A stretch of DNA of 49,226 nucleotides from Escherichia coli (GTDB taxonomy: Bacteria > Pseudomonadota > Gammaproteobacteria > Enterobacterales > Enterobacteriaceae): assembly GCF_003334765.1 (NCBI RefSeq), contig NZ_QOWT01000030.1; one strand, written 5' to 3'. A program made the position numbers. Below, piece by piece: positions 6,001-12,000 of this stretch (positions within the stretch are counted from its first letter, which is position 1; the number at the start of each line of letters is the position of its first letter).

Positions 6001-9000
6001 TTATGCTGAACCGTTGCTAGCGCTTGAAGCCTCCGTTGAGGCGTTGAGCGAGAAAGTGGCCGAGCATTTGCGGGCGATGGGGCTGGAGTGGTGATGGTGG
6101 ATTTAATGGTGAATGAGCAACGGTCGAGTACGGCGGGGAAAGATGTGCCTGCGGGGTATAAACTGACTGAGGTGGGCGTGATTCCTGAGGATTGGGATTG
6201 CGTACCATTTGGTAATCTGTTTAAAACAAACACAAAGAAAAAAAAAGTCAGCGATTATGAGCTAGTTTCATTTATTGGGATGCAGGATGTTAGTGAAGAT
6301 GCACAATTAAAAAATAATACTCAACTTCCTTTTAAAGAAGTTAAAAGTGGTTTTACTTACTTTGAAAAAGGGGATGTTTTATTAGCTAAAATAACCCCTT
6401 GTTTTGAAAATGGAAAAGGATGTCATACCGCTGATTTACCTACTAATGTAGGTTTTGGGAGTACGGAATTTCATGTATTAAGGGAAAATGAAGACTCCGA
6501 TTCTCGCTTCATCTATTTTTGGACAACTGATAAAAAATTCAGAGCATCACTGGAATCTGAAATGGTGGGAAGTGCGGGACACCGTCGTGTGCCGCTAGTT
6601 GCTATAGAAAAATATTTGATTCCATGTCCCCCAAATTTGCAAGAGCAAAGTGCTATTGCTGATTCATTATCTGATATTAATAATTTTATTCTAGCTCTAG
6701 AAAAGCTTATCGTTAAAAAACAAGCCATTAAAACCGCTACTATGCAGCGACTACTGACTGGTAAAACCCGTTTGCCACAGTTTGCGTTGCGCAAAGATGG
6801 CTCTGCTAAGGGATATAAAAAGAGCGAGTTGGGGGAGATTCCTGAAGATTGGGTAGTCACAAGCATTGGACAATTTACTGACTGCTGTGCTGGTGGAACT
6901 CCGAGTACTAAAATTTCAGCATATTGGGGAGGAACTCATCCTTGGATGAGTTCCGGCGAATTACACCTAAAACAGGTGTATGCTGTAGCCGATTATATAA
7001 CCGACGAAGGGCTTGTTAACTCCAGTACAAAGTATGTGCCTAAAAATTCTGTATTAGTCGGATTGGCAGGACAAGGAAAGACTCGAGGGACTGTAGCAAT
7101 TAATCGCATTGAATTATGTACTAATCAGTCTATTGCTGCGATTTTCCCCAGCAAACATCATTCCACAGAATTCCTGTTCTATAACCTCGACAGTCGTTAT
7201 GAGGAACTGAGAAGTTTATCTACTGGTGATGGGGGGCGTGGTGGGTTGAATCTTACTATTATCAGGAAATTACATCTTGCATTTCCGCCAAAAGAAGAAC
7301 AAACCGCCATCGCCACCATCCTCTCCGATATGGACAAGGAAATTCAGACCCTGCAACAGCGTCTGGACAAAACCCGTCAGCTTAAACAGGGGATGATGCA
7401 GGAGTTGTTAACCGGGAAAACCCGCTTAATATAAAAGGGAAACCTATGGCCTATGACTACAGCGCCAGCCTCAACCCGCAAAAAGCCCTGATCTGGCGTA
7501 TCGTCCATCGGGACAATATCCCGTGGATTCTGGATAACGGGCTGCACTGCGGCAACAGTCTGGTGCAGGCGGAAAACTGGATCAATATCGGCAACCCGGA
7601 GCTGATCGGCAAGCGTGCCGGGCATCCGGTACCTGTCGGAACGGGCGGGACACTGCATGACTATGTGCCGTTTTATTTTACCCCCTTCTCGCCAATGCTG
7701 ATGAACATCCACAGCGGGCGCGGCGGCATTAAGCGACGCCCCAATGAGGAGATCGTTATTCTGGTCAGCAACTTGCGGAACGTGGCAGCACACGACGTGC
7801 CCTTCGTGTTTACCGACAGCCATGCTTACTATAACTGGACCAACTACTACACCAGTCTGAATAGTCTGGACCAGATCGACTGGCCCATTTTGCAGGCACG
7901 GGACTTTCGCCGCGATCCAGACGATCCGGCTAAATTTGAACGCTATCAGGCAGAGGCGCTAATCTGGCAACACTGCCCGATCTCTCTGCTGGATGGGATA
8001 ATTTGTTACAGCGAAGAGGTCAGGTTACAATTAGAACAATGGCTGTTTCAGCGTAATCTAACAATGTCCGTTCACACACGGGCTGGATGGTACTTCTCAT
8101 GATCACATATACACAAGGCAATTTACTGGACGCACCGGTGGAAGCTCTGGTGAATACGGTTAATACCGTCGGTGTCATGGGGAAAGGCATCGCGTTGATG
8201 TTTAAAGAGCGCTTCCCCGAAAATATGAAAGTCTATGCCCTCGCCTGCAAACAAAAGCAGGTGATCACCGGCAAAATGTTCATTACCGAAACCGGGGAAC
8301 TGATGGGACCGCGCTGGATTGTTAATTTTCCGACCAAACAGCACTGGCGCGCTGATTCCCGCATGGAGTGGATTGAAGATGGCTTGCAGGACTTACGCCG
8401 CTTTTTGATTGAAGAGAATGTGCAGTCCATCGCCATTCCACCACTGGGCGCAGGCAACGGTGGTTTGAACTGGCCGGACGTTCGGGCGCAGATTGAATCT
8501 GCCCTTGGCGACCTTCAGGACGTTGATATCCTGATTTACCAACCGACTGAAAAATACCAGAACGTTGCCAAAAGCACTGGCGTAAAAAAGCTCACTCCCG
8601 CCAGAGCCGCCATCGCTGAACTGGTGCGTCGCTACTGGGTATTGGGGATGGAGTGCAGCCTACTGGAAATCCAGAAACTGGCCTGGCTGTTACAACGCGC
8701 CATTGAGCAGCATCAACAGGACGATATCCTCAAACTGCGGTTTGAAGCTCACTATTATGGCCCCTATGCGCCCAATCTGAACCATCTGCTTAATGCGCTG
8801 GACGGCACCTATCTTAAAGCCGAGAAACGCATCCCGGACAGCCAACCGCTGGATGCGATCTGGTTTAACGATCAGAAAAAAGAACACGTTAATGCGTATC
8901 TGAACAACGAAGCCAGAGAGTGGCTACCTGCGCTGGAGCAGGTCAGCCAGTTAATTGACGGCTTTGAATCGCCGTTTGGTCTGGAGTTGCTGGCAACCGT

Positions 9001-12000
9001 AGACTGGTTGCTGAGCCGTGGCGAATGTCAACCAACGCTGGATTCCGTTAAGGAAGGGCTGCACCAGTGGCCTGCGGGCGAACGCTGGGCCAGCCGTAAG
9101 TTGAGGCTGTTTGATAATAATAATCTGCAATTTGCCATTAACCGCGTAATGGAGTTCCATTGCTGAGGGTTTAAGGAGCGCCTTTTGAGTACCGTGGGCC
9201 AGCGCGAACGCGCCACACAGCAGCGTCTGATTCAGTTTTTTGTTGAAGATTTAGGTTACCGCCATCTGAGTCACCGCACCGGGTACACCGGGAACAGCAA
9301 CATCGACACGAATATACTGAGCGCGTGGCTAAAACGGCGCGGCGTTAATGATACGTTGATCACCCGGGCGTTGCGGCAACTGGATTCCGCCGCCGCTCTG
9401 GGCGAAGGCAAAAAACTCTATTACGCCAATAAAGAGGTCTATCGCCTGCTGCGTTACGGCGTGAAAGACAAAGAAGGCGCAGGCGAGCAGAACCAAACCG
9501 TGTGGCTGATTGACTGGGCCAACCCACAAGCCAATGATTTCGCCATCGCCGATGAGGTGACGGTCAAAGGCGAGTACTGCAAGCGCCCGGATCTGGTGCT
9601 GTACGTTAACGGCATTGCGCTGGGCGTGATTGAACTTAAGCGTTCGTCAGTGCACGTCAGCGAAGGCATCCGGCAGAATCTCGATAATCAAAAGAAAACC
9701 TTTATCCGCGATTTTTTCACCACTATGCAGTTAGTGATGGCAGGCAACGATACGCAGGGCCTGCGCTACGGCACCATCGAAACCCCGGAAAAATACTATC
9801 TGGAGTGGAAAGAAGATAATCCAGGCGACTATACACATAAACTCGACTTTCATTTAAGTCGTCTGTGTAGCAAATCCAGGCTGTTGGATATCGTCCATAA
9901 TTACATTGCCTTTGATGTCGGGGTGAAAAAACTCTGCCGCCATAATCAGTTCTTCGGCGTCGAGGCGGCTAAACAACATATTGCCCGTCGTGAAGGCGGT
10001 ATTATCTGGCACACACAGGGATCGGGTAAAAGCCTGACGATGGTCTGGCTGGCGAAGTGGATCCGTGAAAATGTGCCAAACTCCCGCGTGTTGATTGTGA
10101 CTGACCGCACCGAACTGGATGAACAGATCGAAAGCGTGTTTATGGGCGTGAATGAAGATATTTATCGCACCTCCAGCGGCAACGATCTTATCGCAACGCT
10201 CAATCATCCTAACCCGTGGCTCATTTGCTCGCTGGTGCATAAATTTGGTCGTCGCAGCGAAGCTGAAGACAATGCGGCTACCGACGCCTTTATCACCGAA
10301 TTACAGCAGTCCCTGACGAAAACATTCCGCGCCAAAGGCGATCTGTTTGTTTTTGTGGACGAGTGCCACCGCACACAATCCGGCAAGCTGCATAACGCCA
10401 TGACTGCCATTCTGCCGGACGCCCTGTTTATCGGTTTTACCGGCACACCGCTGATGAAGAAAGATAAGAAGAAGTCGGTTGAGGTGTTCGGCCCTTATAT
10501 CCATACCTATAAATTTGATGAAGCGGTAGCCGACGGTGTGGTGCTGGATCTGCGCTACGAGGCGCGCGATATTGACCAGTATCTGACATCAGAGAAAAAG
10601 GTCGATGACTGGTTTGAAGCCAAGACTCGCGGTTTGTCGAATTTAGCTAGGACCCAGCTTAAGCAAAAGTGGGGATCAATGCAGAAGCTGCTCTCCAGCA
10701 AGTCGCGGCTGGAGCAGATCGTTAACGACATTTTGCTGGATATGGATACCCGTCCACGCCTGATGGACGGGCGCGGCAACGCCATGCTGGTATGCAGCAG
10801 TATCTATCAAGCCTGCAAGGTTTACGAGATGTTCAGCCAGACCGAGCTGGCAGGAAAAGTAGCGATTGTGACCAGCTATCGCCCCGATGCCGCCAGCATC
10901 AAAGGCGAAGAAACGGGCGAAGGGTTAACGGAGAAACTCTCTAAACACGCCACCTATCGTAAAATGTTGGCTGACTATTTTGAACAAAGTGAAGAGAAGG
11001 CCGCCGCACGCATTACCGAGTTCGAGCGGGAAGTGAAACAGCGTTTTATTGAAGAGCCGGGGCAAATGCGCCTGCTTATCGTGGTGGATAAGCTGCTGAC
11101 TGGCTTTGACGCGCCGTCCGCCACCTATCTCTACATTGATAAAACCATGACCGACCATACGCTGTTTCAGGCGATTTGTCGGGTGAACCGGCTGGACGGT
11201 GAGGATAAAGAGTATGGCTATATTATCGATTATAAAGATCTGTTCCGTTCGCTGGATAAAGCGATTACCGATTACACCACGGGCGCGTTTGATGATTACG
11301 ATCGGGACGATGTGGCCGGGTTGCTGAAAGACAGGCTGGAGCAGGCGCAACTGGATCTCGACAGCGCGCTGGAGATGGTTCGCAGCTTATGTGAACCCGT
11401 CAAAACCCCGCGCAGCCTGCAGGACTATCAGCACTATTTTTGCGGTGAATCAGGAGAGAATCAGACTTCGTTAAACGAAAAAGAGGCGCTGCGCCTGACA
11501 TTTTACCAGTGCGTCGCCCGTCTGCTACGCGCTTATGCCAGCATCGCCAATGAAATGCCGGAAGCAGGCTACACTGCCGAAGAGGTAGAGAGCATTCGCG
11601 CCGAAGTCGCTGAATTCGAAAAACTGCGCTATGAGATTAAGCTGACCAGCGGCGATCTTCTGGATATGAAGCGCTTTGAACCCGCTATGCGTCATTTACT
11701 GGATATGTATGTTCGCGCCGATGATAGCGAAGTGCTGATGGATTTTGAAGAGTTAAGTCTGATTGAACTGATTGTCGAGAAAGGCTTGGCGGCGACCGTC
11801 GCCCTGCCGGATGATATCCGTAATAATCAGGATGCGATGGCGGAAACCATCGAAAACAACGTGCGCAAAACCATCGTGGATGAAAACCCGGTTAACCCAA
11901 AATACTATGGGCGCATGTCGCAGCTGCTGGATGAACTGATTACCCTTCGCCGACAAAATGCGCTCAATTATCAGCAGTATCTGGAACGTATCCGCGATTT

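Follow-up and report, generated by a model that had tools for sequence, protein, structure and literature searches.

The window, a stretch of 49,226 nucleotides of Escherichia coli DNA, carries a type I restriction-modification (RM) operon in which a toxin-antitoxin pair lies between hsdS and hsdR. The first-pass annotation had proposed a DUF4433-type gene and a macrodomain gene at 7446-9166, and open reading frames (ORFs) were found at exactly these coordinates, with Pfam, NCBIfam and PADLOC all agreeing on their identity. The first of them, darT (7446-8102, + strand), is predicted to encode a single-stranded DNA (ssDNA) thymidine ADP-ribosyltransferase toxin of 218 aa. A profile-HMM search gave a significant match to Pfam PF14487 at full length (model positions 1-201 of 201, E 4e-53), and the protein also matched NCBIfam toxin_DarT (NF048013; 262 bits, cut-off 150) and PADLOC DarT (2e-74). 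In these three collections the DarT family was its sole match, and there was no similarity to ABC-ATPases or anticodon nucleases. The sequence motifs on which the annotation had relied are all in the protein: HDYVPFYF at residues 71-78, FVFTDSHA at 120-127 and QAE, with E170 in YQAE. A second QAE, at residues 41-43, is irrelevant. Both G49 and the catalytic E170 are present, the latter aligned to the residue that is mutated (E160A) in the crystal construct 7OMV of Thermus DarT (Taq E160 corresponds to EPEC E170). E170A and G49D of EPEC DarT have both been characterised, and E170A is inactive. The window protein is identical to EPEC DarT at 217 of 218 residues, and by analogy with the EPEC protein, for which the activity was shown, we infer that it ADP-ribosylates thymidine in ssDNA, S213A being the sole difference.

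The second gene, darG (8099-9166, + strand), encodes a putative antitoxin of 355 aa, 354 of which are identical in EPEC, with a macrodomain that includes K80 and a C-terminal DarT-binding domain. The ORF at 8087/8099-9166 significantly matched the Pfam Macro model (5e-21), and its C-terminal region is weakly SocA/Panacea-like. Matches to NCBIfam antitoxin_DarG (451 bits, cut-off 250, model positions 1-337 of 338 covered) and to PADLOC DarG (1e-127) agree with this assignment, as do structural relatives: over residues 1-152 the protein matches the macrodomain of Thermus aquaticus DarG (5M31, 4e-55), and over residues 183-351 the C-terminal domain of Mycobacterium tuberculosis DarG (7YK3_B, 7e-13). 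K80 lies inside a PTK motif, at the place of the TARG1-like catalytic lysine, and the K80A (Taq) and K54A (EPEC numbering) variants of DarG are inactive. In DarTG1, the antitoxin to DarT1 is reported to be a NADAR protein and not a macrodomain glycohydrolase. Judged by its sequence features, the window antitoxin is of the DarTG2 type, a predicted macrodomain glycohydrolase with a TARG1-like lysine and not a NADAR protein. With the DarTG2 family (Thermus aquaticus, M. tuberculosis and EPEC; Jankevicius et al., 2016; Lawaree et al., 2020) the pair shares the DUF4433/DarT fold with its catalytic Glu, the antitoxin macrodomain with the TARG1-like Lys, the C-terminal DarT-binding domain and the ATGA overlap of the toxin and antitoxin genes, and nothing of substance sets it apart.

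The surrounding RM system is complete: hsdM, hsdS and hsdR are all uninterrupted, and their PADLOC matches are near-full to full length. The methyltransferase subunit gene hsdM (3656-6094, + strand) encodes 812 aa (TIGR00497 283 bits, cut-off 243; PADLOC MTase_I 1426 bits), of which 793 are identical in EPEC. It is followed by hsdS (6094-7434, + strand), encoding a specificity subunit of 446 aa (PADLOC Specificity_I 1e-127) from an ATG that shares bases with the stop codon of hsdM (TGATG). As HsdS shares only 306 identical residues with EPEC HsdS across 463 alignment columns, a different recognition sequence is predicted. Downstream of darTG lies hsdR (9185-12280, + strand), which encodes a restriction endonuclease/translocase of 1031 aa from a TTG start (TIGR00348 546 bits, cut-off 285); it aligns to PADLOC REase_I from residue 1 (1633 bits), and the start in the EPEC RefSeq record is identical. 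The hsdR stop is overlapped (TGATG) by the start of a gene for a YgjP-like Zn metallopeptidase of 238 aa (12280-12996, + strand; PF01863 1e-61), named 'M48 family metallopeptidase' in RefSeq, which corresponds to the last of the seven ORFs in the published island discussed below. The GC content of darT (0.54) and darG (0.52) is like that of hsdM (0.53) and hsdR (0.52), so that there is no compositional trace of a recent darTG insertion; hsdS alone is AT-rich (0.41). A tRNA scan of the window detected no tRNA genes, and hence no integration site can be defined within it.

To the first-pass annotation the stop and start codons overlapped at every junction. This holds for darT and darG, which share ATGA at 8099-8102; hsdS and darT, and darG and hsdR, are separated by gaps. 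The former gap, given there as 12 nt, measures 11 nt (stop 7432-7434, ATG 7446), and the latter 18 nt. The reading of the entry into hsdR was accurate, with AAGGAG at 9173-9178, 6 nt upstream of the TTG at 9185. Overall, the island junctions, including those of hsdM/hsdS and hsdR/M48, are overlaps of 1 or 4 nt or gaps of 11-39 nt. From these short overlaps and gaps, together with the absence of a convincing internal terminator, it is most likely that all seven genes share a transcript that starts at the promoter ahead of rptR. A consensus scan found no rho-independent terminator above chance on the + strand within 3656-12996; the best candidate of the scanned region, and the first past the last gene, is a terminator-like hairpin of 9 pairs with a T-run at 13334-13358 (+ strand), identified by the same type of scan. 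Terminator-like sites across 3200-13400 numbered 17 against 11.4 expected (sd 3.5), modestly above expectation at most, and promoter-like sites in this region numbered 12 against 10.8 expected from shuffled sequence. As evidence on internal promoters, the scan is neutral.

We also weighed whether darTG, hsdR or both are merely neighbours driven by their own internal promoters, in which case the arrangement would record insertion history and not shared regulation. Many toxin-antitoxin modules autoregulate their own promoters, and hexamers that resemble promoter elements are found on the + strand at 8003-8031, inside darT, and at 9510-9538. These matches are weak, however (9/12), and as frequent as in shuffled sequence, the gaps of 11 and 18 nt that flank darTG contain nothing but ribosome-binding sites, and overlaps join darT/darG, hsdM/hsdS and hsdR/M48 in a tight arrangement that is conserved across 249 genomes. 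We regard separate internal promoters as unlikely and favour shared transcription. Transcript quantification in the published study of the near-identical locus was of hsdM only (Zhang et al., 2025, PMC12255303).

That locus, of EPEC E2348/69, has been defined as the RptR-RMS-DarTG2-M48 (RRDM) island, which as a whole confers phage protection (Zhang et al., NAR 2025, PMC12255303). The seven window ORFs, compared with those of EPEC, follow the same order as in the published definition, rptR-hsdM-hsdS-darT-darG-hsdR-M48, with the same junctions and the same -35 and -10 promoter elements. Over darTG, the nucleotide identity to EPEC E2348/69 is 99.8%; beyond the DarT substitution, DarG shows V253A, HsdR differs at four residues and M48 at one. 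All six large genes score beyond the curated profile cut-offs, and near-identical loci carry the same DarT/DarG-in-RM annotation in RefSeq. The segment thus very likely represents a copy of the E. coli RRDM island, with DarTG2 between the specificity and restriction genes, a level of confidence that applies to the whole explanation, including the mechanism, the shared transcription and the constitutive expression described below. Unlike the EPEC island, which lies in an IS context, that of the window adjoins an aerobactin cluster; the HsdS target-recognition domains differ, and so do 19 residues of HsdM. The closest darTG match was LSN03-016011/A; the two sequences diverge within the first target-recognition domain of hsdS and, beyond about 13.5 kb, throughout. 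The architecture itself, as noted by the first-pass annotation, is correct but already known: DarTG was placed within type I RM operons in the first DarTG paper (Jankevicius et al., 2016), the biochemistry of EPEC DarTG was established subsequently (Lawaree et al., Cell Rep, 2020), and the near-identical locus was studied functionally in 2025.

The window copy departs from EPEC most clearly in its regulatory region. The putative island promoter (3380-3408, + strand) consists of a -35 element, TTGAAC (3380-3385), a 14-nt spacer and a -10 box, AGCTAATTT (3400-3408), and in alignment its sequence and spacing are identical to those of the experimentally mapped EPEC promoter (PMC12255303). The RptR operator is a remnant (3399-3413, + strand): where EPEC has three TAGCTA repeats, the window has two 9-bp repeats, one with an intact TAGCTA (3399-3404) and one with a degenerate TAGCTG (3408-3413). 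When we scanned 3301-3660 for the sites permitted according to Zhang et al. (TAGCTA, TAGATA, TATCTA and TATATA), the one at 3399 was the only site, whereas in an RRDM island as defined there a complete type I RMS has at least two such sites in its promoter. Full repression needs two RptR sites, and no single-site genome in the published dataset had a complete type I RMS (PMC12255303). The repressor gene rptR (3446-3616, + strand) has an in-frame deletion of 69 bp (23 codons), which leaves 56 aa instead of 79 and removes residues 49-71, the DNA-recognition and dimerisation helix alpha4. The functional 79-aa protein has E58, K61, L69, A72 and L74 as conserved residues of helix alpha4; in the window, residues 49-71 are gone and A72 is replaced by I, and the match to PDB 9R2Z extends over residues 1-54 only. 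Given an RptR without its DNA-recognition helix and a single intact operator, we infer that the island is constitutively expressed in the window copy. Some regulation may persist, or an RptR homologue encoded at another locus may act in trans. Constructs without repression proved impossible to clone on a multicopy plasmid (PMC12255303), a result not easily squared with a derepressed copy being viable on the chromosome.

The helix deletion is the one unusual feature of the window copy, and we did not find it described in the literature. The same allele is flagged as a pseudogene by PGAP in five related genomes, and it occurs in 36 of the 249 island-carrying E. coli genomes (about 14%), with many O157:H7 among the other 35; O157 644-PT8 is an example of a strain with the deletion. 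Direct repeats of GGTCTGA lie on either side of the deletion and might allow it to recur. We considered whether it marks one clonal lineage. The hsdM sequences argue against a simple version of this idea, as the window hsdM has 24-26 differences to loci with full-length rptR vs 68-74 to other deletion loci.

Among E. coli genomes, darTG was found in 249 and hsdR at at least 95% identity in about 250, and at that hsdR identity no empty-slot version of this RM operon was apparent; below 95%, where three records lie at 90-95% and about ten more at 60-80%, the one inspected was a 74%-identical relative with other cargo. Another reading, raised by Jankevicius et al. (2016), is that the toxin-antitoxin pair mainly keeps the RM operon or the genomic island from being lost and is not a layer of phage defence. 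Such stabilisation would suit the IS elements that flank the island, its mosaic mobile contexts and the reshuffling of hsdM haplotypes and rptR alleles among strains. Yet phage defence has been reported for DarTG2 family members as well as for the whole RRDM island (PMC12255303), and stabilisation and defence can coexist. A mainly stabilising role is, in our view, unlikely.

The suggestion of the first-pass annotation that the hsdS-hsdR junction is a recurrent docking site, comparable to the slot of PrrC, is well founded. In a related RM/M48 locus, of E. coli 14EC017, two DUF262 proteins occupy this slot. PrrC, TgvAB and an RNA-binding/AAA pair have been published as cargo of type I RM loci, with TgvAB and the RNA-binding/AAA pair placed explicitly between hsdS and hsdR; the slot has already been termed a hotspot for defence cargo (PrrC, TgvAB). 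The gene order of prr is hsdM-hsdS-prrC-hsdR. Like PrrC of EcoprrI, a type Ic RM system, DarT is an abortive-infection effector genetically linked to type I RM. PrrC unites ABC-ATPase and tRNase in a single protein, which the RM complex itself keeps silent and the Stp peptide of T4 activates. DarT, in contrast, belongs to the DNA ADP-ribosyltransferases and has a dedicated antitoxin, so that the locus, with its DarG gene, does not present an RM-silenced effector devoid of its own antitoxin. TgvAB (Vibrio cholerae VPI-2), a DUF262, GmrSD-like pair to which that of 14EC017 is similar, is likewise a two-gene defence cassette within a type I RM cluster; unlike darTG, it constitutes a type IV modification-dependent restriction system and not a toxin-antitoxin pair.

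A guard of the PrrC type, in which DarT is restrained by, or senses, the type I RM complex and is freed when an Ocr-type anti-restriction protein disables it, would account for darTG occupying this slot. Linkage, silencing and activation are published for PrrC and EcoprrI, and the hsdR allele is nearly always linked to darTG in E. coli, as the counts above show. Furthermore, the whole EPEC island cuts T7 plating 1000-fold (PMC12255303), T7 being a phage that encodes the type I RM inhibitor Ocr. Against this, DarG is sufficient alone, by two mechanisms, and DarTG acts as an autonomous toxin-antitoxin pair in strains without RM genes. Transplanted DarTG2 systems are reported to defend alone, and DarTG is also found outside RM operons, with 12 of 54 RptR-linked type I RM loci carrying it (PMC12255303). 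Such a guard seems very unlikely to us. We know of no dependence of DarT on RM proteins.

The preferred reading is of two defence layers encoded in one island, by steps that were shown for the near-identical EPEC proteins and are presumed for the window copy. HsdM2S would methylate host DNA, and HsdR2M2S would cut incoming DNA that is unmethylated. DarT, using NAD+, would ADP-ribosylate thymidine in TTT/TCT motifs of ssDNA (the preference of EPEC DarT; that of Thermus DarT is TNTC), and the modified DNA would stall replication, an abortive-type second layer. The DarG macrodomain, with K80 as catalytic residue, would remove the adduct, and the C-terminal domain would sequester DarT. The EPEC promoter is repressed by RptR on TAGCTA repeats, and the window copy would run constitutively.

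With the biochemistry of the EPEC toxin, the phage protection, the promoter and the repressor structure all published, the discovery value of the locus is small. What it offers is a natural allele in which the repressor helix and one operator are lost and all six downstream genes are intact. The published model requires two or more RptR sites for a complete type I RMS and takes unrepressed expression to be toxic, and chromosomal copies that appear to be derepressed bear on how necessary repression is. Strains with deleted rptR are convenient for asking whether RM and DarTG2 cooperate. It is highly improbable that the embedding of DarTG2 is itself functional, as a back-up tuned to or triggered by failure of the host RM (for example through Ocr) in the manner of PrrC/EcoprrI, with both layers perhaps constitutive in the RptR-defective alleles. 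If it were, the 36 RptR-defective E. coli genomes would be a natural test bed for cross-talk between RM and DarTG.

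The DarT/DarG pair and the genes around it form a run on one strand, made up of hsdM (3656-6094, 812 aa), hsdS (from 6088 or 6094 to 7434), darT (7446-8102, 218 aa), darG (from 8087 or 8099 to 9166), hsdR (9185-12280, 1031 aa, TTG start) and a 238-aa YgjP-like metallopeptidase gene (12280-12996; Pfam, 1e-61), which RefSeq names 'M48 family'. The three hsd genes were recognised by NCBIfam and PADLOC. The first-pass annotation had placed the pair at 7446-9166 and quoted DarT motifs, both correctly as judged by reading the sequence, and Pfam, NCBIfam and PADLOC profiles all bore out the two identities. 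The 218-aa protein matched Pfam DarT over the full length of the model (E 4e-53), NCBIfam toxin_DarT with 262 bits (cut-off 150) and PADLOC DarT. The darG product matched NCBIfam antitoxin_DarG with 451 bits (cut-off 250) and PADLOC DarG at 1e-127, and in Pfam showed an N-terminal macrodomain and a weak C-terminal SocA/Panacea-like match.

The catalytic residues appear in their expected alignments. In the Thermus DarT crystal structure 7OMV, presumably of the E160A mutant, the position aligned with DarT E170 (in YQAE) is an alanine; E170 also aligned with its counterpart in Mycobacterium tuberculosis DarT (7YK3), and G49 is wild type. DarG K80, in NFPTKQHW, aligned with K80 of the Thermus aquaticus (Taq) protein, and residues 183-351 matched the DarT-binding C-terminal domain of M. 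tuberculosis DarG (7YK3_B). As the antitoxin is a macrodomain protein and not a NADAR protein, the pair belongs to DarTG2. DNA ADP-ribosylation by the DarTG of EPEC stalls replication, and DarG works in two modes, by macrodomain action and by sequestering DarT through its C-terminal domain. A darG start at 8099, and not at the in-frame upstream ATG at 8087, is supported because DarG profiles align with the longer ORF only from its residue 5-6 onwards, because its residue 1 aligns with position 11 of the T. aquaticus DarG chain 5M31 (positions 1-10 presumably being a tag), and because the RefSeq annotation has the same start. EPEC DarG has been published as a 330-aa protein with K54 as its catalytic lysine (K80 in the window), which implies that the construct began at Met27 of the form favoured by the profiles and the Taq structure (8099-8179). 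Constructs so numbered would be without the first 26 residues, including the equivalent of Taq N22.

The genes are tightly spaced. The hsdM/hsdS junction is TGATG, with an overlap of 1 nt, darT and darG overlap in ATGA, and hsdR and the M48 gene in TGATG. Of the junction details reported at first pass, the darT/darG ATGA and the AAGGAG serving the hsdR TTG start held (AAGGAG ends 6 nt 5′ of the TTG, in a gap of 18 nt after darG), and the hsdS-darT gap, containing AAGGGA, had to be corrected from 12 to 11 nt. Given this spacing, the ribosome-binding sites in both short gaps and the lack of a convincing plus-strand terminator before 13334-13358, we infer from the sequence that the genes would form a single transcription unit read from the rptR promoter, with darTG co-transcribed. 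Promoter and terminator scans performed no better than chance. Zhang et al. (NAR 2025, PMC12255303) measured hsdM transcripts alone, and the words operon and co-transcription are absent from their paper.

The system is already known, and a near-identical locus has been experimentally characterised. Of 5,426 complete E. coli genomes searched by megablast, 249 carry 7446-9166, almost always with at least 99% identity and with darT/darG as the annotation; one of them is EPEC O127:H6 E2348/69, at 99.8%. There the gene order is HTH-like protein gene, hsdM, hsdS, darT, darG, hsdR, M48, with IS elements on either side, and this seven-ORF unit was named RRDM by Zhang et al. (2025), who also mapped its promoter (-35 TTGAAC, 14-bp spacer, -10 AGCTAATTT), solved the RptR structure (9R2Z) and showed that repression comes from RptR bound to TAGCTA repeats, two sites being needed for it to be complete. 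The presence of darTG between hsdS and hsdR of a type I RM system is confirmed, and the earlier interpretation is supported. Compared with EPEC, DarT has a single change (S213A), as does DarG (V253A), and there are 4 residue differences in HsdR, 1 in M48 and 19 in HsdM. HsdS is substantially different, being identical to its EPEC counterpart at 306 of 463 aligned columns, which fits swapped target-recognition domains, and is predicted to have a different methylation and restriction specificity. Its first target-recognition domain (6200-6642) is unlike that of EPEC and also unlike that of the otherwise closest strain, LSN03-016011/A.

The proposal that the hsdS-hsdR slot is a docking site for effectors, by analogy with PrrC, was correct yet already in the literature, type I-embedded effectors having been published for PrrC/EcoprrI and for TgvAB in Vibrio cholerae VPI-2. 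About 250 E. coli genomes carry the island hsdR with at least 95% identity, and 249 carry darTG, so that in E. coli this hsdR is essentially always darTG-linked. Strain 14EC017 has a 74%-identical hsdR followed by an M48 gene, and in the slot that darTG fills in the window it carries two DUF262 proteins resembling TgvAB/GmrSD (4372-7867 of that locus). Nucleotide homology between the two ends at 7424, ten bases 5′ of the hsdS stop, and restarts at 9326 within hsdR; the exchanged segment therefore comprises the cargo and the 5′ end of hsdR. Composition of the island genes gave no sign of recent darTG insertion. The hsdS of 14EC017 is broken by an IS3 element.

The window DNA is E. coli-like, and the genes upstream of the island match those adjoining it in other strains. 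Downstream lie IS fragments, an aerobactin cluster and more island genes. On the minus strand directly downstream, a single 695-aa ORF (13571-15658) encodes the C-terminal end of IstA, an IS21-family transposase, together with a complete IstB helper ATPase; the element seems to be IS21/IS100-like and to have undergone fusion or rearrangement. The aerobactin cluster (15897-23909, minus strand) contains iutA, iucD, iucC and iucA, by annotation of 99%-identical E. coli loci, and presumably iucB; given its proximity, the defence island sits in a larger mosaic of virulence and fitness islands. A minus-strand cluster at 27249-33299, which may be another defence-type module, encodes a PAPS-reductase-like protein with weak BrxP and DndC matches (28885-30162) and an 893-aa SF1 helicase with an MkoA-like helicase region (30618-33299, 1e-43); it matched no complete known defence system. 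A macrolide-type glycosyltransferase-like gene (39324-40448, minus strand) and a TonB-dependent siderophore receptor gene (46164-48254, plus strand; NF010012, 1618 bits) suggest a second siderophore-related locus.

The regulatory end of the island differs from that of EPEC. Alignment showed that one of the three 9-bp promoter repeats is missing and that rptR (3446-3616) lacks 69 bp, in frame, between GGTCTGA direct repeats (junction at about 3589/3590). The deletion removes RptR residues 49-71, the whole alpha4 helix of DNA recognition and dimerisation. With it go E58 and K61, which are invariant, L65, R68 and L69, which serve in dimerisation, and S60, whose S60G mutant was cited for the role of alpha4 in DNA binding (Zhang et al., 2025). 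Against the PDB, the 56-aa product matched 9R2Z over residues 1-54 only, and PGAP calls the same allele a pseudogene in related genomes. Within 3399-3413 the second promoter repeat reads TAGCTG, leaving one intact TAGCTA operator, and a motif scan upstream of hsdM found a single site of the four permitted RptR site types. Since alpha4 is gone, one operator is left, no further rptR copy lies within the window and the functional promoter geometry (-35, 14-nt spacer, -10) is kept, this copy would probably be transcribed constitutively.

To follow the deletion allele we searched complete E. coli genomes with a 60-nt probe across its junction and a probe for the deleted segment. These detected 36 and 213 genomes, respectively, which sum to the 249 darTG carriers; among the 36 are numerous strains of O157:H7, along with ETEC from pigs and isolates from cattle. 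Downstream genes were intact in four of the five deletion loci examined, the exception being ETEC4073, where hsdM is frameshifted. Two-repeat promoters also stand beside full-length rptR, and repeat number is therefore not tied to the deletion; among nine other loci compared, the TAGCTG change was common only to LSN03-016011/A. In this comparison (loci L001-L006 and L008-L010), window hsdM (3656-6094) differed by 24-26 nt from full-length-rptR loci and by 68-74 nt from other deletion loci, a mosaicism that would reflect either recombination within the island or a deletion that arose more than once. Zhang et al. (2025) make no mention of truncated rptR alleles or O157, and in their dataset no genome with a single RptR binding site encodes a complete type I RMS. 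The window, with a complete type I RMS and a single RptR site, is a counter-example, and this RptR-defective, single-operator natural allele is a modest new detail that is worth a note.
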